64,000 bases of DNA from Shigella phage Sf25, in the sequence record MF327009. One strand, 5' to 3'. The notes below the pieces were generated by a model. The model was not told the origin of the DNA and made no database searches. It saw only the letters and a list, made by a program, of their open reading frames with translations. This document shows positions 1,325-61,547 of the stretch, in pieces. The translations under genes were made by a program, and so were the position numbers. Positions within the stretch are counted from its first letter, which is position 1. Each line of letters opens with the position of its first letter.

Positions 1325-1915
1325 ATGCTCTTTACATTTTTTGATCCGATTGAATATGCGGCCAAAACGGTGAATAAAAACGCGCCGACTATTCCTATGA
1401 CAGATATTTTTAGAAACTATAAAGACTATTTCAAACGTGCTCTTGCGGGATACCGCTTACGTACTTATTATATTAAAGGTTCACCACGCCCGGAAGAATT
1501 AGCAAATACTATATATGGAAATCCACAGTTGTATTGGGTTTTATTGATGTGTAATGATAATTATGATCCATATTATGGATGGATTACTTCACAAGAAGCT
1601 GCTTATCAAGCATCTATACAAAAATACAAAAACGTAGGTGGAGACCAAATAGTATATCATGTAAATGAGAACGGTGAAAAATTTTATAATTTAATATCAT
1701 ACGATGATAATCCATATGTTTGGTATGACAAAGGTGATAAAGCTAGAAAATATCCTCAATATGAAGGAGCACTTGCTGCGGTCGATACGTATGAAGCTGC
1801 TGTTCTTGAAAATGAAAAACTTCGTCAAATAAAAATAATAGCAAAATCAGACATTAATTCATTTATGAACGACCTTATACGTATAATGGAGAAATCTTAT
1901 GGAAATGATAAGTAA
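1325..1915 (+). CDS. 53: gp53 baseplate wedge subunit
   Basis: 196-aa ORF immediately upstream of gene 5; T4 length/synteny. Confidence 0.85.
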   Translation: MLFTFFDPIEYAAKTVNKNAPTIPMTDIFRNYKDYFKRALAGYRLRTYYIKGSPRPEELANTIYGNPQLYWVLLMCNDNYDPYYGWITSQEAAYQASIQKYKNVGGDQIVYHVNENGEKFYNLISYDDNPYVWYDKGDKARKYPQYEGALAAVDTYEAAVLENEKLRQIKIIAKSDINSFMNDLIRIMEKSYGNDK

Positions 1916-3626
1916 TAACCTTAATTGGTTTGTTGGTGTTGTTGAAGATAGAATGGACCCATTAAAATTAGGTCGTGTTCGTGTTCGTGTGGTTGGTCTG
2001 CATCCACCACAAAGAGCACAAGGTGATGTAATGGGTATTCCAACTGAAAAATTACCATGGATGTCAGTTATTCAACCTATAACTTCTGCAGCAATGTCTG
2101 GAATTGGAGGTTCTGTTACTGGACCGGTAGAAGGAACTAGAGTTTATGGTCATTTTTTGGACAAATGGAAAACTAACGGAATTGTCCTTGGCACGTATGG
2201 TGGAATAGTTCGCGAAAAACCGAATAGACTTGAAGGATTTTCTGACCCAACTGGGCAATATCCTAGACGTTTAGGAAATGATACTAACGTACTAAACCAA
2301 GGCGGTGATGTAGGATATGATTCCTCTTCTAATGTTATTCAAGATAGTAACTTAGACACTGCAATAAATCCTGATGATAGACCATTATCAGAAATTCCAA
2401 CTGATGATAATCCAAATATGTCAATGGCTGAAATGCTTCGCCGCGATGAAGGATTAAGACTAAAAGTTTATTGGGATACCGAAGGATATCCGACAATTGG
2501 TATTGGTCATCTTATCATGAAGCAGCCAGTTCGTGATATGGCCCAAATTAATAAAGTTTTATCAAAACAGGTTGGTCGTGAAATTACCGGAAATCCAGGT
2601 TCTATTACAATGGAAGAAGCGGTAACTTTATTTGAACGTGATTTAGCTGATATGCAACGTGACATTAAATCACATTCTAAAGTTGGCCCAGTTTGGCAAG
2701 CGGTTAATCGTTCTCGTCAAATGGCATTAGAAAATATGGCATTTCAGATGGGTGTTGGCGGTGTAGCTAAATTTAACACAATGTTAACTGCTATGTTAGC
2801 CGGAGATTGGGAAAAAGCATATAAAGCTGGTCGTGATTCATTGTGGTATCAACAAACAAAAGGCCGTGCATCTCGTGTTACCATGATTATTCTTACAGGG
2901 AATTTGGAATCATACGGTATTGAAGTGAAAACACCGGCTAGGTCTTTGTCTGCAATGGCTGCTACTGTAGCAAAGTCTTCTGACCCGGCTGACCCTCCTA
3001 TTCCGAATGATTCGAGAATTTTATTTAAAGAACCTGTTTCTTCATATAAAGGTGAATATCCGTATGTTCACACAATGGAAACTGAAAGCGGTCATATTCA
3101 GGAATTTGACGATACCCCGGGACAAGAACGATACAGATTAGTTCATCCAACTGGAACTTATGAAGAAGTATCACCGTCAGGAAGAAGAACAAGAAAAACT
3201 GTTGATAATTTGTATGATATAACCAACGCTGATGGTAATTTTTTGGTAGCCGGTGATAAAAAGACTAACGTCGGTGGATCAGAAATTTATTACAACATGG
3301 ATAATCGTCTTCACCAAATAGATGGAAGCAATACGATATTTGTGCGTGGCGATGAAACTAAGACAGTTGAAGGTAATGGAACTATCCTAGTTAAAGGCAA
3401 TGTTACTATTGTAGTTGAAGGTAATGCTGACATTACAGTTAAAGGAGATGCTACCACTTTAGTTGAAGGAAATCAGACTAATACAGTAAATGGAAATCTT
3501 TCTTGGAAAGTTGCTGGGACAGTTGATTGGGACGTTGGTGGTGATTGGACAGAAAAAATGGCATCTATGAGTTCTATTTCATCTGGTCAATACACAATTG
3601 ATGGATCGAGGATTGACATTGGCTAA
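1899..3626 (+). CDS. 5: gp5 baseplate hub subunit / tail-associated lysozyme (cell-puncturing spike)
   Basis: 575 aa; T4-lysozyme-like segment (EGLRLKVYWDTEGYPTIGIGHL); C-terminal VxGxxxV beta-helix repeats. Confidence 0.95.
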   Translation: MEMISNNLNWFVGVVEDRMDPLKLGRVRVRVVGLHPPQRAQGDVMGIPTEKLPWMSVIQPITSAAMSGIGGSVTGPVEGTRVYGHFLDKWKTNGIVLGTYGGIVREKPNRLEGFSDPTGQYPRRLGNDTNVLNQGGDVGYDSSSNVIQDSNLDTAINPDDRPLSEIPTDDNPNMSMAEMLRRDEGLRLKVYWDTEGYPTIGIGHLIMKQPVRDMAQINKVLSKQVGREITGNPGSITMEEAVTLFERDLADMQRDIKSHSKVGPVWQAVNRSRQMALENMAFQMGVGGVAKFNTMLTAMLAGDWEKAYKAGRDSLWYQQTKGRASRVTMIILTGNLESYGIEVKTPARSLSAMAATVAKSSDPADPPIPNDSRILFKEPVSSYKGEYPYVHTMETESGHIQEFDDTPGQERYRLVHPTGTYEEVSPSGRRTRKTVDNLYDITNADGNFLVAGDKKTNVGGSEIYYNMDNRLHQIDGSNTIFVRGDETKTVEGNGTILVKGNVTIVVEGNADITVKGDATTLVEGNQTNTVNGNLSWKVAGTVDWDVGGDWTEKMASMSSISSGQYTIDGSRIDIG

Positions 3627-4150
3627 TATACTTCCAATGAGCGCTGATTTAGGAGAATCCATGGAAGGTTCTTCTATCGACGTCACCTTTACCGCTCAAT
3701 TAGAAACAGGTGAAACGTTAGTATCTATAAATATAACTAGTTACGAAGAAACTCCTGGGGTTTTAGTAGAAGAAAATCGTTTATATGGAACGTATGAATC
3801 TGTATTTGGATTTGGAAATGATGCGTTGAAATATCGTTTAGACGTTGGTGGTGATTGGACAGAAAAAATGGCATCTATGAGTTCTATTTCATCTGGTCAA
3901 TACACAATTGATGGATCGAGGATTGACATTGGCTAATATACTTCCAATGAGCGCTGATTTAGGAGAATCCATGGAAGGTTCTTCTATCGACGTCACCTTT
4001 ACCGCTCAATTAGAAACAGGTGAAACGTTAGTATCTATAAATATAACTAGTTACGAAGAAACTCCTGGGGTTTTAGTAGAAGAAAATCGTTTATATGGAA
4101 CGTATGAATCTGTATTTGGATTTGGAAATGATGCGTTGAAATATCGTTTA
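3531..4150. repeat. perfect tandem duplication, 2 x 310 bp (3531-3840 and 3841-4150)
   Basis: identical sequence at offset 310; spans gene 5 3' end and gene 5.1 5' end. Confidence 0.95.
3601..3936 (+). other. chimeric ORF created by the duplication: first 80 codons of 5.1 fused in frame to last ~30 codons of gp5
   Basis: 112-aa ORF; C-terminus VGGDWTEKMASMSSISSGQYTIDGSRIDIG is identical to the gp5 C-terminus. Confidence 0.7.
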
Positions 4151-4465
4151 GATAATGAATTTAAAACCGCTGCTTCATGGGAAGACCTTCCAACTGATTC
4201 TAATACTCAGTTATATTTATGGAAAGCTCCTCAAAACCTCCAGAAGACATTCACTTACGAAGTAACATTAATATATGACTACCAAGAACAAGGTGAATCT
4301 GGAGGTTCTGGTAGTAATTCTAGGTCATCTTCTGATACTACTGAACCGACAGATCCTCCTGCTCTAGTAAGAAAAACTCTCGTTAAAAATTATACTAAAA
4401 CTATAGTTGGAAATTGGAGTCGTTGGGCTAATAAACTGAGAAGCTACGTGTATGAGAGGCCATAA
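3911..4465 (+). CDS. 5.1: gene 5.1-like protein (intact second copy)
   Basis: 184-aa ORF from ATG 3911, follows gene 5 as in T4. Confidence 0.7.
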   Translation: MDRGLTLANILPMSADLGESMEGSSIDVTFTAQLETGETLVSINITSYEETPGVLVEENRLYGTYESVFGFGNDALKYRLDNEFKTAASWEDLPTDSNTQLYLWKAPQNLQKTFTYEVTLIYDYQEQGESGGSGSNSRSSSDTTEPTDPPALVRKTLVKNYTKTIVGNWSRWANKLRSYVYERP

Positions 4466-4691
4466 ATGTCAGGATTAAGTTATGATAAGTGTGTTACTGC
4501 TGGCCATGAAGCGTGGCCTCCAACAGTCGTGAATGCTACAAATTAAAAAGCCATATGAAACACATGGCGGAGTGACACAACCTAGAACTTCTAAGGTATA
4601 TGTCACTGGAAAGAAAGCTGTTCAAATGGCTGATCCAATATCATGCGGTGATACTGTGGCTCAGGCATCATCTAAAGTATTCATTAAATAG
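4466..4691 (+). pseudogene. 5.4: gene 5.4 (PAAR-like tail spike tip) disrupted by internal ~68-bp deletion and frameshift
   Basis: ATG at 4466 encodes [26 protein letters not shown] then TAA at 4544; the C-terminal 48 codons (KKPYETHGG...[16 protein letters not shown]) continue in another frame to TAG 4689-4691. Confidence 0.75.
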
Positions 4692-4699
4692 GATTTAAA

Positions 4700-32834: not shown

Positions 32835-33036
32835 TTTTCACCTTTTTATTGATATGTCTTTTTCTATAGACAACTTTTTCTCGAGTTTCAAATTTATTCT
32901 TAGCAGTCATAGCTCGAGCCCATAATACAGCCACTTCTTTCGCCTGTAAGTTTAATTCACGAGCAATTTCAATGAATGACTTTCCAGACTCATGAAGAGT
33001 AAACACCACAACCTCAGTTCTCATAATCAATCTCAT
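32821..33036 (-). CDS. small helix-turn-helix-like protein (T4 24.3 position)
   Basis: 71-aa ORF; FIEIARELNLQAKEV resembles an HTH. Confidence 0.5.
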   Translation of the reverse strand: MRLIMRTEVVVFTLHESGKSFIEIARELNLQAKEVAVLWARAMTAKNKFETREKVVYRKRHINKKVKNGTV

Positions 33037-33326
33037 GTTATCGAGTTGGTGCCATTATATACATCATTTTCTGATTGTGTTTTGTGTGCTTTCAAAATGA
33101 AGAAAGGGGCCGAAGCCCCTTATGTAATACAGCCACTTCTTTCGCCTGTAAGTTTAATTCACGAGCAATTTCAATGAATGACTTTCCAGACTCATGAAGA
33201 GTAAACACCACAACCTCAGTTCTCATAATCAATCTCATGTTATCGAGTTGGTGCCATTATATACATCATTTTCTGATTGTGTTTTGTGTGCTTTCAAAAT
33301 GAAGAAAGGGGCCGAAGCCCCTTATG
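32923..33326. repeat. perfect tandem duplication, 2 x 202 bp (32923-33124 and 33125-33326)
   Basis: identical at offset 202; covers the 5' 38 codons of the small HTH gene, its upstream region and a GGGGCC-GAAG-CCCC hairpin. Confidence 0.95.
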
Positions 33327-34392: not shown

Positions 34393-35015
34393 AAATTAAT
34401 GTAATAAATTAAGCTAAATAATGTTTGGTGTGCAGAAGCATGCTCAAAACTAGTTGGGTGAGATTTCCAATCCGGAGTTTCAGCGATCCATTGATAAATC
34501 CACCAAGGAACAGTACAGAATCCTGGATTTTTTCCAATCAACTGAAGATTCGGGCTAAAGTTTTCCGGAAGAGTAAATACAGACGGCTTTTCAGATTCAA
34601 TAATCTCAGCTACAGCCTGTTCGAATTTTTCTTCAACAAAAGGAGTATCTTCAATCAAAACATCGGTATTTTCAGGAATTTTATCCGTTTCTACTACTTC
34701 AATTTTAATGTCAGATTTAACTGGAGAATCAATCAAAAGTGCTGCTTCTGGATTGACTTCTTCATCGTCATATTTTAATCCCTCTGCAGCATCAGCAGCA
34801 TCAATTAAGTCTTTAATAGATAACCCATCAGTCTCTGGCATAGGTTCACTAGCGAGCTTCTGGAGAGCTTCTTCAATATCAACAACGATATTATCAAAAG
34901 ATTTATTCTTTTTGACCTTTATACCAAACTGTTCAGCATATTCAGCTAATTTAGCTTTAGCTTCTTTGTTATCATCAAGAGCCTTCAGCTCTGCAATATA
35001 ATCTTTATCTATCAT
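34335..35015 (-). CDS. inh: Inh, inhibitor of prohead protease
   Basis: 226-aa ORF at the T4 inh position; its 3' end overlaps the hoc frame by ~56 nt. Confidence 0.7.
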   Translation of the reverse strand: MIDKDYIAELKALDDNKEAKAKLAEYAEQFGIKVKKNKSFDNIVVDIEEALQKLASEPMPETDGLSIKDLIDAADAAEGLKYDDEEVNPEAALLIDSPVKSDIKIEVVETDKIPENTDVLIEDTPFVEEKFEQAVAEIIESEKPSVFTLPENFSPNLQLIGKNPGFCTVPWWIYQWIAETPDWKSHPTSFEHASAHQTLFSLIYYINLLLRPVVKLEMDLLHMLGL

Positions 35016-38813: not shown

Positions 38814-38834
38814 ATTTGAATAAAAGGAGCATCT

Positions 38835-45393: not shown

Positions 45394-45424
45394 TTTGTGT
45401 TCCTCATGTTATGTCAGTAAGATT

Positions 45425-45453
45425 ACTATAACACAACACGAGGGACTTGTAAA
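45425..45453 (-). promoter_or_regulatory. sigma70-like early promoter (-35 TTTACA, 17-nt spacer, extended -10 TGtTATAGT)
   Basis: reverse complement of 45401-45454 reads GTTTACA...TGTTATAGT; the 54-bp element is identical to 61491-61544. Confidence 0.65.
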
Positions 45454-47511
45454 CTACATCTTGAACTTTTTAGACATTCCGTTGATGTTAACCAAAGAAG
45501 CCAAGATTTGAGAAACTTCGTTTTCCTCTTCTTTTGATTCTTCTACGAGGAATTGATTAAACCCAGCCATTGGACGAACTTCGCCAGTTTCCATTAGATG
45601 ATCGCCATCATATACCGATTCTTCTAATTGTTCAGAAGGAGGAACGATTGTGCCTTCGATTAGATACTTGTTATAAGCAGTTTCTTTCATCATGTACGTG
45701 CTTACTTTATTAATCTTCAACAAAATTCCACGCGGTAGAATAACTTCAGCTTCTGATGGAAATCCTGATAAATGACCTGGAACGATAACTTTGATTCGCT
45801 CAGCTCCTTTAATTACCATACCCACGCTAGTTTCAGCATCTTCATTAGCATATGTAGAATGACTACCCATATGCATCAAATCTTCTGCATCAATGGAACC
45901 TTCTCCTTCACCAGAAAATACTGCGCCGGAATCATCTAGAGCCATATAGTTTTTACCATGCTCACCGAAGATATTTGGTTTAAGCGATGTTGATACGAAG
46001 TTCTTGAAATAGAACATTTTATTTTCAATGTTATGACGCAAAGTTTTAAAGGTAACTTCTTGCCCACGATAAAGAGTAGTTCCTGGAGGAAGAACTGAAC
46101 CTTTAGCAAATGCAGAATCCAACGTCTCGATGTGTTTAATAGCTCGTTCCATATATTCTTCACGGGTAGAATCAGGTTTACCTAAAAGGAACGAGTTCAT
46201 TTCAACATATGAATCTGCACAATAATCTTCAATTACATCAGACTCAGCCTGAGTTAATCCTTTTGGAGTTACTTCAGTGCTTGCGTATTCATATGCCTGA
46301 GCGGCAGATTCATTAATCAATTTATAAATGCCATTCATGACAAATTGAATAATAGCTGTCTTTTCATCTGGTGTAGCTTTAGAACCTTTAACTAAATCAT
46401 TGATAATTTTCTTAATAACATCAAAGCTATTAGAAATATTAATGTCAGCAAGATCGCTTAAAATTTTATCAGTTTTATAATCAAAGAATTCTTTATTCTT
46501 TAAATATTCTTGAGAACCTTGATATGTTATATCGCTCTGCAACTTGATAGATGGATCACGTAAACGTGCATGGGCTAATGCAATATGATTTCGGAAACTT
46601 TCTAGTTCATAATCGTTAGATTTAAAACGAGAAGCACTTCTCATACCACCGATAGCTCCTTTGCTAAAGTTTGAACCAATCTGAATAACGCCAGAGTTCA
46701 TCGGACCTTCTGCTTTATATACCGGAACTTTAGATTCAAACTCTTGATATTTCTTAGCAGCGAAGCTATCACCCTGAAGTGAAGCATCAACAGTAGAATA
46801 TTGAGCTTGTGCTGCTAATCGACGACTAATTTTAGTTTTCTGAATAACAGCTTGATCCGTGCGCTTATCATTTTCTAAAGCAATAGAAGCAGCAACAGCG
46901 ACAGCTTTAGGAACAGCATTACCTGTTTTAACGTCTACATAAACATCACCAACCTTTGATTCAACTTTTGTGAATAACTCAGTTGAAATAGGAGGTACAC
47001 CTGGAATGTCTTCTAAATTGGCATTTTTACGGTAAACCATAATATATGCATATTTCTTATCATAGTCCCAGATTTCCTTTAAAAGAACATATCGACCTGC
47101 TCCTTTAGTACGTACTAAACGGTCAGCAATAACTTGCATTTGACGAGCAGCGCCATTTGTTTTACTCTTTAGTACGCGGAATAAGCATGCATCAATTTTA
47201 TACTGTTTCATTGTTTGAAGAGCAGTATCAAAAACAGCATTAATGACGCCAATTGGATTTCCACCCAAGTTTTTAAGCTTGACTAACGATAATTTCTCGT
47301 TGACACCTATCATTACGATATGCATCATTTTGTCGCCTGGCTTAACGTTTTTATTCGTATCACCGCCAGAGGTGTATGTACAAAATCTAAATCCAGGAAG
47401 CACGCTTTCTTCACCGGCTTGAATAGCAAAAATTTGTGGTATTTTATGCTTAGGATTTAAGTTAACAACCGGCGCCGAAGCGCCGTCAAATAATTCTGTA
47501 ATAAGTTCCAT
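45454..47511 (-). CDS. Alt-family ADP-ribosyltransferase paralog
   Basis: 685 aa; N-terminal MELITELFD shared with Alt; ART motifs YRGQ, FVSTSL, SEAEVILPRG. Confidence 0.85.
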   Translation of the reverse strand: MELITELFDGASAPVVNLNPKHKIPQIFAIQAGEESVLPGFRFCTYTSGGDTNKNVKPGDKMMHIVMIGVNEKLSLVKLKNLGGNPIGVINAVFDTALQTMKQYKIDACLFRVLKSKTNGAARQMQVIADRLVRTKGAGRYVLLKEIWDYDKKYAYIMVYRKNANLEDIPGVPPISTELFTKVESKVGDVYVDVKTGNAVPKAVAVAASIALENDKRTDQAVIQKTKISRRLAAQAQYSTVDASLQGDSFAAKKYQEFESKVPVYKAEGPMNSGVIQIGSNFSKGAIGGMRSASRFKSNDYELESFRNHIALAHARLRDPSIKLQSDITYQGSQEYLKNKEFFDYKTDKILSDLADINISNSFDVIKKIINDLVKGSKATPDEKTAIIQFVMNGIYKLINESAAQAYEYASTEVTPKGLTQAESDVIEDYCADSYVEMNSFLLGKPDSTREEYMERAIKHIETLDSAFAKGSVLPPGTTLYRGQEVTFKTLRHNIENKMFYFKNFVSTSLKPNIFGEHGKNYMALDDSGAVFSGEGEGSIDAEDLMHMGSHSTYANEDAETSVGMVIKGAERIKVIVPGHLSGFPSEAEVILPRGILLKINKVSTYMMKETAYNKYLIEGTIVPPSEQLEESVYDGDHLMETGEVRPMAGFNQFLVEESKEEENEVSQILASLVNINGMSKKFKM

Positions 47512-47514
47512 GAT

Positions 47515-49608
47515 TTATCCTTGAACGAACTTGTAAGGCATGTTTGTAATATCTATGCAAGACGCAATAATTCCAAGAGATGATTCTACTTTCTGTTTAA
47601 CGTTTGATGAAACAAATGATGCAAAGTCAACTCTGTCTTCTATTTCAATATCACCTGTCATTGCAACTACTTCGCCGGTTTCCATTAAATGGTCTCCATC
47701 ATAGATTACCGATTCGGTGAGCTCTTCCGTGGTCATAACTTCAGCTTGAATGAGTTTTGTATTATTAGACGTGGTTCCGTCATTATTAGAAGCATCAGTT
47801 ATTTTATTAACTTTGACCATCAATCCGCGCGGTAGAATAACTTCAGCTTCTGTTGCTATTCCGAGACTTCCTGGATATACAACATTAACTTTATGAGCTC
47901 CATCAATTGCCCATCCTATTTGAACTTTAACGTATTCAGGATTTTCTTTATACGCTCTTATTTCGTTTGGATTAATAGTTATTCCTTCTTCATTTTTATC
48001 AACTGTTAATTCATTGCGAGCTTCTGGTTCTAAAAGACCAATACCAGCATGTGTAATTCCAAAACGTCCAAAAATGATAGGAGTTAAAGAAGTAGATACA
48101 AAATTTCTGAAATAGAACACTTTATTTTTAACTAGTGCTTCGTATATAGGAGCAGTCATACTTTGAGCACGATAAACTGTGATGCCTTCCGGTATGCGGT
48201 CACCATTTTCAAAAGCTGAATCTAAGTTATTTATAGCAGATTCAATTTCTTTTTCACTCATTACATCATATCGTTCTGGATTGTAACGACCTAAAAGAAG
48301 ATTATTGATGTCAGTATATCCTGAACCGCAATATTCTCTAATGCCACGCTTTTGTGATGGAGTATATTTAGAACCATCGCGGGCAATAGTAATATCAATC
48401 ATTGGACCAGCACCAATTCCAGAAAAACTGTAAATCATTCGTTTGAGGAATTTAGTTTTTGCTGCGTTCCAGGAATTTTTAGTTATTTCTTCCCAGACTT
48501 CATCTGGTTGTCCTTTACGATTTTTATTATGATTAGCAAGCCATTTATCTTTATAATCTTCAAAGAATTGATTTACAGCTGCTGCGTATTTCTCTAAACA
48601 TTTTATTGAAGTAGTTGGTTCATTTTTAATTGCATTAAAAATTACTTCTTTAATTTTTTCTGAAACTTCACCGACTTGACTCATTGGAAAGAATTTATAA
48701 TCATAGTGAAGTTCATCTGCCGTTCCTTCGGCAATAATTTTTGCTGCCTTAGTTTTAGAAGCTAATGAATTAATTCCAAGCTTCATTTCTTCTGCTTCGG
48801 GAATTAAAGGTGCAGTAGTTGGTTTATTAAAATTAGCTGCTGTAGATTCATACTTCTGGAATAATTCACTTTCAAATCTAGAAGATTCCAATGACTGACT
48901 TTGTGCAATTGCTCTACGGGAAATTTTAACTTTAACGATTACAGCTTGGTCAGAACGTTTATCGTTTTCTTGTGCAATAGATGCTGCAATTGCCTCATTT
49001 TTAGTTACTTGAGCTCCAGTATCTTTATTGATATAAACATCGCCAACTTTCGATTCAACTTTAGTAAAGAGCTCGGTACTAATTTCCGGAACTCCTGGAA
49101 TGTCTTCTAGCGATACATTTTTGCGATGTATAAGAATATATGCATACTTTTTATCATAATCCCAGAGTTCCTTAAGAAGGACGTATCTGCCACCTGAACG
49201 ACTACGGATAAGTCTATCAGCAATAACTTGAATTTGTCGAGCTTGACCAGCGGTTTTAGACTTAAGAATACGAAGCATACAAGCATCAATTTTATACTGA
49301 CGCATTGTTTGCATTGCAACAGTAAAAACTGAATTGATATAATTAATTGGGCTTGGACCAAGACCTTTTAATTTAGCAATTGAACCTTTAGCAGTTAATG
49401 TAAAAGGAACAATATGCATCATTTTATCGCCCATTTTTAAATCGCGATTAGTATCACCTCCAGATGTATAGGTACATAAACGAAAGCCTGGCTGTTCAAT
49501 TGCATCATCAACGTGAACTGAAAAAATTTGCGGTATTTTCTTCTTTGGATTTAAGTTTGTAATCGGAAGAGTAGTATCTTCGTCAAATAATTCTGTAATG
49601 AGTTCCAT
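47515..49608 (-). CDS. alt: Alt ADP-ribosyltransferase (packaged internal head protein)
   Basis: 697 aa from second Met; motifs YRAQ, FVSTSL, TEAEVILPRG; adjacent to gene 30. Confidence 0.85.
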   Translation of the reverse strand: MELITELFDEDTTLPITNLNPKKKIPQIFSVHVDDAIEQPGFRLCTYTSGGDTNRDLKMGDKMMHIVPFTLTAKGSIAKLKGLGPSPINYINSVFTVAMQTMRQYKIDACMLRILKSKTAGQARQIQVIADRLIRSRSGGRYVLLKELWDYDKKYAYILIHRKNVSLEDIPGVPEISTELFTKVESKVGDVYINKDTGAQVTKNEAIAASIAQENDKRSDQAVIVKVKISRRAIAQSQSLESSRFESELFQKYESTAANFNKPTTAPLIPEAEEMKLGINSLASKTKAAKIIAEGTADELHYDYKFFPMSQVGEVSEKIKEVIFNAIKNEPTTSIKCLEKYAAAVNQFFEDYKDKWLANHNKNRKGQPDEVWEEITKNSWNAAKTKFLKRMIYSFSGIGAGPMIDITIARDGSKYTPSQKRGIREYCGSGYTDINNLLLGRYNPERYDVMSEKEIESAINNLDSAFENGDRIPEGITVYRAQSMTAPIYEALVKNKVFYFRNFVSTSLTPIIFGRFGITHAGIGLLEPEARNELTVDKNEEGITINPNEIRAYKENPEYVKVQIGWAIDGAHKVNVVYPGSLGIATEAEVILPRGLMVKVNKITDASNNDGTTSNNTKLIQAEVMTTEELTESVIYDGDHLMETGEVVAMTGDIEIEDRVDFASFVSSNVKQKVESSLGIIASCIDITNMPYKFVQG

Positions 49609-49632
49609 CATATCCTCTCTAGTGTTTATTCT

Positions 49633-49640
49633 ATTTATAA
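49633..49640 (-). promoter_or_regulatory. late promoter TATAAATA (minus strand) upstream of alt
   Basis: reverse complement of TATTTATA, about 22 nt upstream of alt ATG. Confidence 0.55.
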
Positions 49641-49660
49641 AATTAAAGGCCCGAAGGCCT

Positions 49661-49849
49661 TTAATAATCTATTGGTAAGAGAGTACGATATATTTCAAAC
49701 TTTGGACCTTTTTCATAGGCATCAAATGTTTCTGTGAATTTATTATAAGCATATGCATCTATAAATTCAATCATAATTTGTGATACAGAAGTAGAAACAT
49801 CTCCACCTTCTTTTTGAGCCACGACAATTGTTTCTAAGTAAGCTTTCAT
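49661..49849 (-). CDS. hypothetical small protein
   Basis: 62-aa ORF between gene 30 and alt, ATGA overlap with gene 30 stop. Confidence 0.5.
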   Translation of the reverse strand: MKAYLETIVVAQKEGGDVSTSVSQIMIEFIDAYAYNKFTETFDAYEKGPKFEIYRTLLPIDY

Positions 49850-54465: not shown

Positions 54466-54807
54466 TTATGCTTTCTGCTTACCAAAACGAGAAGCATCAT
54501 CTCGAAGAACCGCACGTGCTCGGCGCATGATCTTCTCAACAGTTTGATTGATACGAGAGTTCGACCCACGCTTGTAGCCAGCGCGTTTAGAATCACCAAC
54601 TTTCTTTTCAACTGCTTTCTTTGCTTTAGCTTGTTTTTTCTGCTTACCAAAACGAGAAGCATCATCTCGAAGAACCGCACGTGCTCGGCGCATGATCTTC
54701 TCAACAGTTTGATTGATACGAGAGTTCGACCCACGCTTGTAGCCAGCGCGTTTAGAATCACCAACTTTCTTTTCAACTGCTTTCTTTGCTTTAGCTTGTT
54801 TTGCCAT
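54466..54807 (-). CDS. small lysine/arginine-rich protein carrying an in-frame 55-codon tandem duplication
   Basis: from ATG 54807: MAKQAKAKKAVEKK...RFGKQK then KQAKAKKAVEKK...RFGKQKA; 113 aa, about 58 aa without the duplication. Confidence 0.65.
   Translation of the reverse strand: MAKQAKAKKAVEKKVGDSKRAGYKRGSNSRINQTVEKIMRRARAVLRDDASRFGKQKKQAKAKKAVEKKVGDSKRAGYKRGSNSRINQTVEKIMRRARAVLRDDASRFGKQKA
54472..54801. repeat. perfect tandem duplication, 2 x 165 bp (54472-54636 and 54637-54801)
   Basis: identical at offset 165, in frame within the basic-protein gene. Confidence 0.95.
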
Positions 54808-55095
54808 TATAAATTCTCTTTTAAATGAAAATGCAGGACTTATTGGCATTGCCTGCGCAAGCCCTCAAGGGGAACATAGGTTTTTGGATATTTAACGACC
54901 AGGATAACCATAAACCCGTCATCATACCACCAAGACTTACACAGATAACACTTTTCTGACGCATGATAGTAACATTCAAGAGGTACACCGTAAAACTGCC
55001 GGGGTCTTGAAACTATAATGATTCGCAAATCATTAATCAGACAGTTCGACGGCTCCTCGATTTAGCTCACACTAAGGCAGTGAATCTCCAATAAA

Positions 55096-55428: not shown

Positions 55429-55734
55429 CTAACAGGTAACGAATTTTTGTTTAATTTCTTTTGGCTGCTTAAGACCCAGAGCTACAAAAGGGTGTGGAAC
55501 GTTTCGAATTTGACCAACTGGAAGAGAAGTCAAATCACCAACTTCACAGAAACCTTCAGGAACATCAGGACCAACAGAGTGAACTACACACAGTTCAGGA
55601 ACTTCACCTTGAACACGTTTACCGATAATAAGTCCTGATTCTGTAACTTCTTCATCACCGGCTTGTGCAGGTTCAGAAACTAAAATAACATATTCACCGA
55701 CAGCACGAATTGGTAGCTGTTGTACTTCAGACAT
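55429..55734 (-). CDS. 31: gp31 co-chaperonin (GroES analogue)
   Basis: 101-aa [25 protein letters not shown]...; T4 synteny. Confidence 0.8.
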
Positions 55735-57485: not shown

Positions 57486-58006
57486 GTTGATCCCAGCTCC
57501 TTACTTTCAACGTTTTTAACTAATTTGACAGAAACTAATTCGGCATCTTGGGTAATCATTACCGGGCCTTCTTCATACTCTTCAAGATATTCTAGAGCTT
57601 TCTTTTTAGCTTCTTCCTTCGTATCAGTTTGAGCATAGATATAGAACATACAACCAGTAATACCTACTACTTTCCACTTAATTTCTTTATCAGTTTTAAT
57701 TTCAAATTTACTGATAGAGTCATCTTTTTGAACTTCTTCGAAAAAATAATATTCTGACATATAAGTAATTGAAAATAACGGGCTATCTTTATAAGATTCG
57801 CCCATTACATCAACAGCTTTATACCAGCAGTCATCAATTTCACGTTTAATGCTAATAACATTTTTCGCAGAATCTATTTTTACTTTAAATGAATTTTCCC
57901 CAATAAACTTGGCAATTCGTTTATTAGCCCCGCAAGTTTCATTAAAAATATCTTTATATCCAGCTTTAAAGCGATAAACCTTATCTTCTTCAAACCATTT
58001 GCTCAT
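57479..58006 (-). CDS. hypothetical early protein
   Basis: 175-aa ORF preceded by an early promoter. Confidence 0.55.
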   Translation of the reverse strand: MSKWFEEDKVYRFKAGYKDIFNETCGANKRIAKFIGENSFKVKIDSAKNVISIKREIDDCWYKAVDVMGESYKDSPLFSITYMSEYYFFEEVQKDDSISKFEIKTDKEIKWKVVGITGCMFYIYAQTDTKEEAKKKALEYLEEYEEGPVMITQDAELVSVKLVKNVESKELGSTC

Positions 58007-58036
58007 TTCAATTTCCTCATTTGTTTTGGTAGAGCT

Positions 58037-60196: not shown

Positions 60197-60639
60197 TTAT
60201 CCTCTTTTAACTCTTGACGATAATAACATATCATAGTTTTCTGATCATGTACATATCGTTTTACATCATTAAGCCAAATGCGAAATTCCTGGGAATCTTC
60301 AAATGGCATACCGACCCAAGCTTTACCATCAATAACTTTAACTTGCCAGGATAGTTTAGCTTCATCGTATGACTTTATTTGTACTGGCCAATTAGGATGA
60401 ACTGTTTCTTTCTTTACTTCTAGAGGCTTTGTCGAACAACCAACTAGAAGACCAATAGATAATATTACCCAAGCTTTACCATCAATAACTTTAACTTGCC
60501 AGGATAGTTTAGCTTCATCGTATGACTTTATTTGTACTGGCCAATTAGGATGAACTGTTTCTTTCTTTACTTCTAGAGGCTTTGTCGAACAACCAACTAG
60601 AAGACCAATAGATAATATTACTGCTGATAGTTTAATCAT
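60187..60639 (-). CDS. outer-membrane spanin (o-spanin lipoprotein) carrying an in-frame 51-codon tandem duplication
   Basis: 150 aa; signal peptide with lipobox LLVGC; residues ILSIGLLVGCSTKPLEV...DGKAWV occur twice in tandem. Confidence 0.7.
   Translation of the reverse strand: MIKLSAVILSIGLLVGCSTKPLEVKKETVHPNWPVQIKSYDEAKLSWQVKVIDGKAWVILSIGLLVGCSTKPLEVKKETVHPNWPVQIKSYDEAKLSWQVKVIDGKAWVGMPFEDSQEFRIWLNDVKRYVHDQKTMICYYRQELKEDKCK
60314..60619. repeat. perfect tandem duplication, 2 x 153 bp (60314-60466 and 60467-60619)
   Basis: identical at offset 153, in frame within the o-spanin gene. Confidence 0.95.
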
Positions 60640-61483: not shown

Positions 61484-61514
61484 CATAAAGTCCTCATGTT
61501 ATGTCAGTAAGATT

Positions 61515-61543
61515 ACTATAACACAACACGAGGGACTTGTAAA
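61515..61543 (-). promoter_or_regulatory. sigma70-like early promoter upstream of alc (second copy of the 54-bp element)
   Basis: 61491-61544 is identical to 45401-45454: -35 TTTACA, 17-nt spacer, TGtTATAGT. Confidence 0.65.
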
Positions 61544-61547
61544 CAGC

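Follow-up and report, generated by a model that had tools for sequence, protein, structure and literature searches.

The window analysed here is a 64,000-nucleotide stretch at the start of the 168,573 bp genome of Shigella phage Sf25 (sequence record MF327009); the region is a late-gene block of T4-like (Tequatrovirus) type. Gene 5, which encodes the baseplate hub, tail lysozyme and central spike, was found intact on the plus strand (positions 1899-3626, 575 aa), on the basis of the list of open reading frames (ORFs), the Pfam domains of gp5 (Gp5_OB, Phage_lysozyme, Gp5_C and Gp5_trimer_C) and the annotation of related phages. A complete gene 5.1 lies downstream on the same strand (3908-4465; phrog_1168, unknown function) and was assigned with the ORF list and PHROGs, in agreement with Sf24 gp5 and T4 5.1. 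Between the two is a chimeric ORF of 112 aa (3598-3936, plus strand), in which an N-terminal segment of 5.1 (about 81 aa) continues in frame into the C-terminal 31 aa of gp5: in the PHROGs comparison, residues 8-82 of this ORF corresponded to positions 1-75 of the 160-position 5.1 profile (phrog_1168). The initial annotation had described the same arrangement (intact gp5, a 112 aa fusion and a full 5.1 copy), and the ORFs agree with it. In GenBank the fusion ORF is started from the ATG at 3637 and is deposited as 'hypothetical protein Sf25_gp5' (99 aa, AUV63286.1), a protein that proved to be the sole member of its 90% cluster in an exact look-up among approximately 15 billion proteins. Next on the plus strand is a remnant of gene 5.4, encoding the PAAR spike tip (4466-4546): according to alignments with phages SholemSchwarzbard and Sf24, a 68 bp deletion at 4539/4540 causes a frameshift and leaves 26 aa, and the C-terminal part of the gene is still present, out of frame, as ORF 4533-4691. 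T4 without gp5.4 fails to plate on deep-rough LPS mutants (PMC12407873).

The fusion ORF is generated by a perfect tandem duplication. Positions 3531-3840 (copy 1, comprising 96 nt from the end of gene 5 and the start of 5.1) are directly followed by an identical copy at 3841-4150 (310/310 bases), so that the exact repetition claimed from the first reading of the sequence was confirmed with 0/310 differences. Tandem Repeats Finder returned a period of 310, 2.0 copies, 100% matches and a score of 1244. The period-310 match is 312 nt long: it continues past copy 2 to position 4152, owing to a 2-nt 'GA' microhomology, and has no extension to the left. An exact repeat of 310 nt cannot be of chance origin. 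The unit length is not divisible by three (310 = 3 x 103 + 1), and the duplication adds no whole gene, as the unit carries only the end of gene 5 and a partial 5.1. No vector, tag or other foreign sequence was found at the 3840/3841 junction. In phage SholemSchwarzbard the unit is present once, with 100% identity to the Sf25 unit.

A scan of the whole window showed that it contains four perfect tandem duplications (310, 202, 165 and 153 bp). The second (32923-33326, 2 x 202 bp) covers the 5' part of gene 24.3 and the intergenic region beside hoc, the third (54472-54802, 2 x 165 bp) lies in frame within gene 30.9, and the fourth (60314-60621, 2 x 153 bp) lies in frame within the o-spanin gene pseT.2, which is annotated as Sf25_gp77 and specifies 150 aa versus the normal 99. 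The copies of these three duplications meet at 33124/33125, 54636/54637 and 60466/60467, respectively. Both intragenic units (165 and 153 bp) are multiples of three, an outcome with a chance of 1/9. Both non-triplet units (310 and 202 bp) straddle gene boundaries, and therefore intact gene copies remain.

Alignment to Sf24 and SholemSchwarzbard also revealed four unique deletions in the window (68, 133, 29 and 72 bp). Besides the 68 bp deletion in gene 5.4, these are: a 133 bp deletion at 34395/34396, with loss of the inh 3' end, the intergenic region and ~21 codons at the start of hoc; a 29 bp deletion at 38817/38818, which takes out the Shine-Dalgarno sequence of gene 26 together with a palindromic late-promoter element, TATTTATAAATA, that lies between this gene and gene 51; and a 72 bp deletion at 55431/55432, through which gene 31 (co-chaperonin) lacks its final 10 codons and its stop codon. 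As a result of the last of these, Sf25 gp31 (AUV63344.1) has 101 aa instead of 111, and the other near-full-length phage gp31 proteins among those listed in its cluster have 110-112 aa. Genes 26 and 51 and the chaperonin gp31 are essential in T4.

Anomalies of the same class were found in sister genomes of the same submission batch. Sf21 (MF327007) carries a perfect 286 bp out-of-frame tandem duplication within gene 53, a classical essential T4 baseplate gene, which is thereby split into two annotated coding sequences; this junction occurs only in Sf21. A perfect 74 bp duplication is present in an alt-like gene of Sf20 (MF327006). Sf24, from the same batch, was clean across 66 kb: no perfect tandem repeat was found in its homologous 66 kb, nor in 50 kb of PhiZZ30, a phage from another laboratory, both of which contain only the old, diverged repeats of gp5 and hoc. 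Judging from T4 genetics, the changes at 26/51 and gp31 in Sf25 and at gene 53 in Sf21 should be harmful and may be lethal.

The gene 5/5.1 interval was single copy in 555/555 related phage records. Junctions were searched with 44-nt probes, each half of which is too short to seed a match alone, in a collection of 50,697 phage records that does not include the Sf25 record itself (MF327009); other junctions, used as positive controls, were recovered from these records. The 3840/3841 junction had no match in the 50,697 records, and its exact 34-nt pattern was absent from IMG/VR, the GTDB species genomes and the JGI metagenome contigs. The seven further junctions (three duplications and four deletions) likewise had no match in the phage records. 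Thus the duplication stands in the deposited record, is unique to it and is one of eight unique structural anomalies. The initial annotation had taken the identity of the copies and the non-triplet unit as signs of a very recent rearrangement or an artefact rather than of an old paralog; this is borne out by the 0/310 differences and by a junction found in no other public sequence. An old paralog is ruled out by the zero divergence of the copies together with the single copy in all of the related records.

The nearest record is that of Sf24, in which base 1 aligns with base 1 of the window and from which Sf25 differs by ~1,049 SNPs. The SNPs that distinguish Sf25 from its relatives sit at third codon positions, a sign that the sequence diverged naturally. 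Because of this divergence, and because the anomalous proteins were deposited in GenBank as Sf25 proteins, a synthetic sequence was ruled out; the presence of Sf25_gp5, Sf25_gp77 and AUV63344.1 in the databases means that the anomalies belong to the public record. The window also departs from Sf24 at about 37091, 54940 and 57489-58011; these differences were not counted as anomalies, since the junction probes identified them as common natural variants.

The breakpoints were compared for microhomology, composition and placement. Junction microhomology was 2, 0, 1 and 2 nt for the 310, 202, 165 and 153 bp duplications, respectively, and 1, 1, 0 and 0 nt for the 68, 133, 29 and 72 bp deletions. 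Taken together, the eight junctions showed no clear departure from random breakpoints (P about 0.07); the four duplication junctions alone were slightly richer in microhomology than chance (P about 0.04). Amplifications and deletions on record for T4 typically involve 6-10 bp of microhomology (PMC9391042). The GC content at the breakpoints was average, with no unusual AT-richness, so that low coverage of AT-rich sites as the cause of assembly breaks is unsupported. A chimeric assembly from mixed strains, in which the breakpoints would be mosaic boundaries relative to Sf24, was also considered: the comparison was suggestive for the 133 bp deletion only and gave no general pattern. None of the eight anomalies (0/8) lies inside the large essential structural genes, which cover roughly 59% of the window; by a rough hand estimate that uses T4 gene essentiality from general knowledge, this avoidance has a P of about 0.01 under uniform placement. 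In three cases a duplication is followed by a deletion 0.7-1.3 kb downstream (3840/4539, 33124/34395 and 54636/55431). Such pairs fit short, mis-placed contigs and complex template-switch events alike and do not discriminate between them.

We consider it likely that the 310 bp duplication entered the deposited Sf25 genome through an error of assembly or finishing and is no feature of the phage. According to this explanation, overlapping contigs or reads would have been joined with the overlap left in, giving head-to-tail copies; copies that derive from an untrimmed overlap would necessarily be 100% identical and would end at arbitrary bases, and joins elsewhere that left small gaps would appear as short deletions. 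The 112 aa 5.1-gp5 fusion ORF would be a by-product without biological role, and the real Sf25 arrangement would be the ordinary 5 - 5.1 - 5.4 - 6. We infer assembly as the cause of the Sf25 anomalies as a group, since assembly error is the most likely source when the genomes of a single batch contain so many duplications and deletions that are odd and unique. The artefact and engineering alternative that had been raised at the outset is thus upheld for the artefact, through the further anomalies and the sister genomes, and not for deliberate engineering, which is unsupported because the junction contains nothing foreign.

The main competitor is that the duplication is real and arose very recently in the Sf25 stock that was sequenced, by illegitimate recombination or by template switching during T4-type recombination-dependent replication; we regard this as unlikely. 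The source may have been complex events of the type 'jump back, copy, jump forward', for which the three duplication-then-deletion pairs speak, and the fusion ORF would depend on the start signals of 5.1 for its expression but would probably be inert. The density of the anomalies favours the artefact: eight unique changes in 64 kb, versus none in 66 kb of Sf24 and 50 kb of PhiZZ30, would require an extraordinary mutation burst if they were real. So does the occurrence of the same class of anomaly in Sf20 and in Sf21, where a like perfect duplication disrupts an essential gene. The harm to be expected from several changes in an environmental isolate that was plaque-purified also favours the artefact, as the 26/51 promoter and the gene 26 ribosome-binding site are gone, gp31 is shortened and 5.4 is inactivated; in T4, knockout of 5.4 brings a ~1.55-fold loss per growth cycle in competition (PMC12407873). 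Repeats that exceed about 50 bp recombine efficiently in T4, and perfect repeats of 150-310 bp are established to be recombinationally unstable in this phage; several such repeats without selection should therefore not coexist stably. Finally, junction microhomology of only 0-2 nt, below the length typical of T4 rearrangements, favours the artefact over a real event.

Several observations count on the side of a real duplication. The avoidance of large essential gene interiors counts against an artefact, as do the in-frame state of the intragenic duplications and the boundary position of the non-triplet ones, a pattern to be expected of real mutations under selection. The breakpoints that are not AT-rich and the clean 66 kb of Sf24 from the same batch also count against an artefact. 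The slight excess of microhomology at the four duplication junctions points the same way. Among the affected genes, hoc, inh, 30.9 and the spanin genes are dispensable in the laboratory, which counts for real changes. The T4 5.4 knockout is viable (PMC12407873), and T4 readily forms tandem amplifications and deletions (PMC9391042). In its most extended form, this explanation holds that Sf25 underwent a burst of near-homology-free duplications and deletions by template switching, with paired back-jumps and forward-jumps 0.7-1.3 kb apart and essential gene interiors spared by selection, and that its spike locus would carry a 5.1-gp5 tip fusion and no PAAR tip; we hold this version to be decidedly improbable.

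It is very improbable indeed that selection has kept the fusion ORF as a new functional gene, made of a 5.1 fragment and the PAAR-binding tip of gp5, or, in a variant of this proposal, that the ORF is an old paralog: it enters the C-terminus of gp5 in the gp5 frame and retains the translation start of 5.1, and the adjoining gene 5.4 is inactivated in the same record, so that a link to the loss of 5.4 and an altered contact of the spike with the Shigella envelope might be imagined, but the in-frame result has a 1-in-3 chance, the protein occurs nowhere else among the ~15 billion sequences, the lack of divergence excludes an old paralog, the three further duplications of the window have no thematic link to it, and 31 residues of a triple-stranded beta-helix would probably not fold when separated from the gp5 trimer, to judge by the gp5 fold (Pfam Gp5_trimer_C).

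With assembly error as the preferred explanation, the 310 bp feature is most probably not biology and its chief consequence is the presence of spurious proteins in databases. The Sf25 record and at least those of Sf21 and Sf20 appear to carry false duplications and deletions, which calls for a data-quality warning. Proteins that appear spurious have been annotated in NCBI and UniRef, some of them as singletons: Sf25_gp5, the 150 aa 'Rz1' spanin Sf25_gp77, the 101 aa gp31 and the split gp53 of Sf21. Such entries can mislead comparisons of spike, spanin and chaperonin proteins as well as counts of orphan genes. Should the rearrangements be real, a T4-like phage would have undergone unusual complex rearrangement independent of homology, and Sf25 would be a natural isolate without a PAAR tip.

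Three known systems offer a comparison. The natural beta-helix repeats of gp5 (3365-3497 in the window) and the Ig-domain repeats of hoc (in PhiZZ30) are also tandem repeats, located in the same region of T4-like genomes; however, they are old (75-78% identity), in frame and common to relatives, whereas the 310 bp duplication is unique and out of frame, with 100% identity between its copies. Tandem duplications in T4 include the older cases of rII and hp17. The microhomology-mediated segmental amplifications and deletions of T4 (Srikant et al., 2022, PMC9391042) resemble the Sf25 anomalies in that direct repeats occur together with deletions, are recent and are confined to one lineage. The T4 events comprise deletions of 0.7-6 kb and, under strong selection, multi-copy amplifications that contain whole anti-defence genes (PMC9391042). 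The Sf25 units differ from these amplifications: they are 153-310 bp long, are present in exactly two copies and confer no evident benefit. In place of the direct repeat, typically of 6-10 bp, that borders the ancestral breakpoints of the T4 events and stays as one copy at the junction, the 310 bp junction has the 2-nt 'GA' and 8/8 junctions have 0-2 nt, and in place of a selectable unit the 310 bp segment holds no whole gene.

False duplications that arise from untrimmed overlaps between contigs or reads are a known class of assembly error. Two observations set the Sf25 anomalies apart from this class, namely the clean Sf24 sequence and the avoidance of essential interiors beyond random placement. 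In other respects the likeness is close: the Sf25 copies are head-to-tail, 100% identical, bounded at arbitrary bases and missing from all relatives; the unit sizes in the batch (74-310 bp) are within the range of short-read lengths; and there are several duplications per record, with others in sister records, some of which break essential genes.

Besides the exact 310-bp repeat at the gene 5/5.1 junction (3531-3840 and 3841-4150), other perfect tandem duplications were found in the Sf25 window. At 32923-33326, a 202-bp unit present twice in tandem takes in the 5' portion of gene 24.3 (DUF2774) as well as the terminator hairpin of the intergenic region adjoining hoc, and generates an extra, truncated copy of 24.3 (ORF 33092-33238, 48 aa). 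Gene 30.9 contains two in-frame copies of a 165-bp unit (54472-54802), by which the small, basic gp30.9 is almost doubled in length (ORF 54466-54849, 127 aa). Both the 202-bp and the 165-bp duplications were found only in the Sf25 record. A further in-frame duplication (2 x 153 bp, 60314-60621) lies within the o-spanin gene pseT.2: the lipobox and part of the signal peptide are doubled, and the product measures 150 aa, compared with 99 aa for the unduplicated form. The duplicated pseT.2 product is listed in UniRef as 'Outer membrane lipoprotein Rz1'.

Deletions were also detected. In gene 5.4 (4466-4699), which encodes the PAAR spike-tip protein, 68 bp are lost out of frame at junction 4539/4540, leaving a 26-aa product; this deletion, unique to Sf25, follows the 310-bp duplication 0.7 kb further downstream. 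T4 carrying a 5.4 knockout is viable, with much lower fitness (PMC12407873). Three further deletions distinguish Sf25 from all relatives: 133 bp at 34395/34396, removing the C-terminus of inh and the start of hoc; 29 bp at 38817/38818, eliminating the ribosome-binding site of gene 26 together with the late promoter that genes 26 and 51 share; and 72 bp at 55431/55432, leaving gp31 without its last 10 residues.

Perfect tandem duplications were likewise present in sister genomes of the same submission batch. In Sf21 (MF327007.1 74547-75118; 4547-5118 of the comparison stretch L010), an out-of-frame 286-bp duplication lies within the essential baseplate gene 53, for which the annotation gives two CDS (Sf21_gp144 and gp145); its junction was found in Sf21 records only. 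In Sf20 (MF327006.1), a 74-bp duplication was located near the 3' end of the alt-like ADP-ribosyltransferase gene Sf20_gp55 (49625-49773 of the comparison stretch L009).

Other repeats and an insertion also occur in the window. An exact 54-nt repeat is found in two intergenic regions 16 kb apart (45401-45454 and 61491-61544), and both homologous places are occupied by sequence in Sf24. On the minus strand it resembles a T4 early promoter (GTTTAC ... TATAGT) with a Shine-Dalgarno sequence after it, and probably represents a repeated promoter/leader element of natural origin. The 522-bp segment at 57490-58011, missing in Sf24 and found in many other T4-like phages (RB5, VEc20, G50 and others), is an ordinary mosaic insertion in the cd-pseT region that brings in a small ORF. 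Finally, diverged (80%) repeat segments (45702-45765 and 47799-47862) are common to two adjacent Alt-like ADP-ribosyltransferase genes, a tandem pair that is present as well in the annotations of Sf24, Sf21 and the T4-like relative PhiZZ30. These genes are genuine old tandem paralogs and contrast usefully with the perfect duplications.
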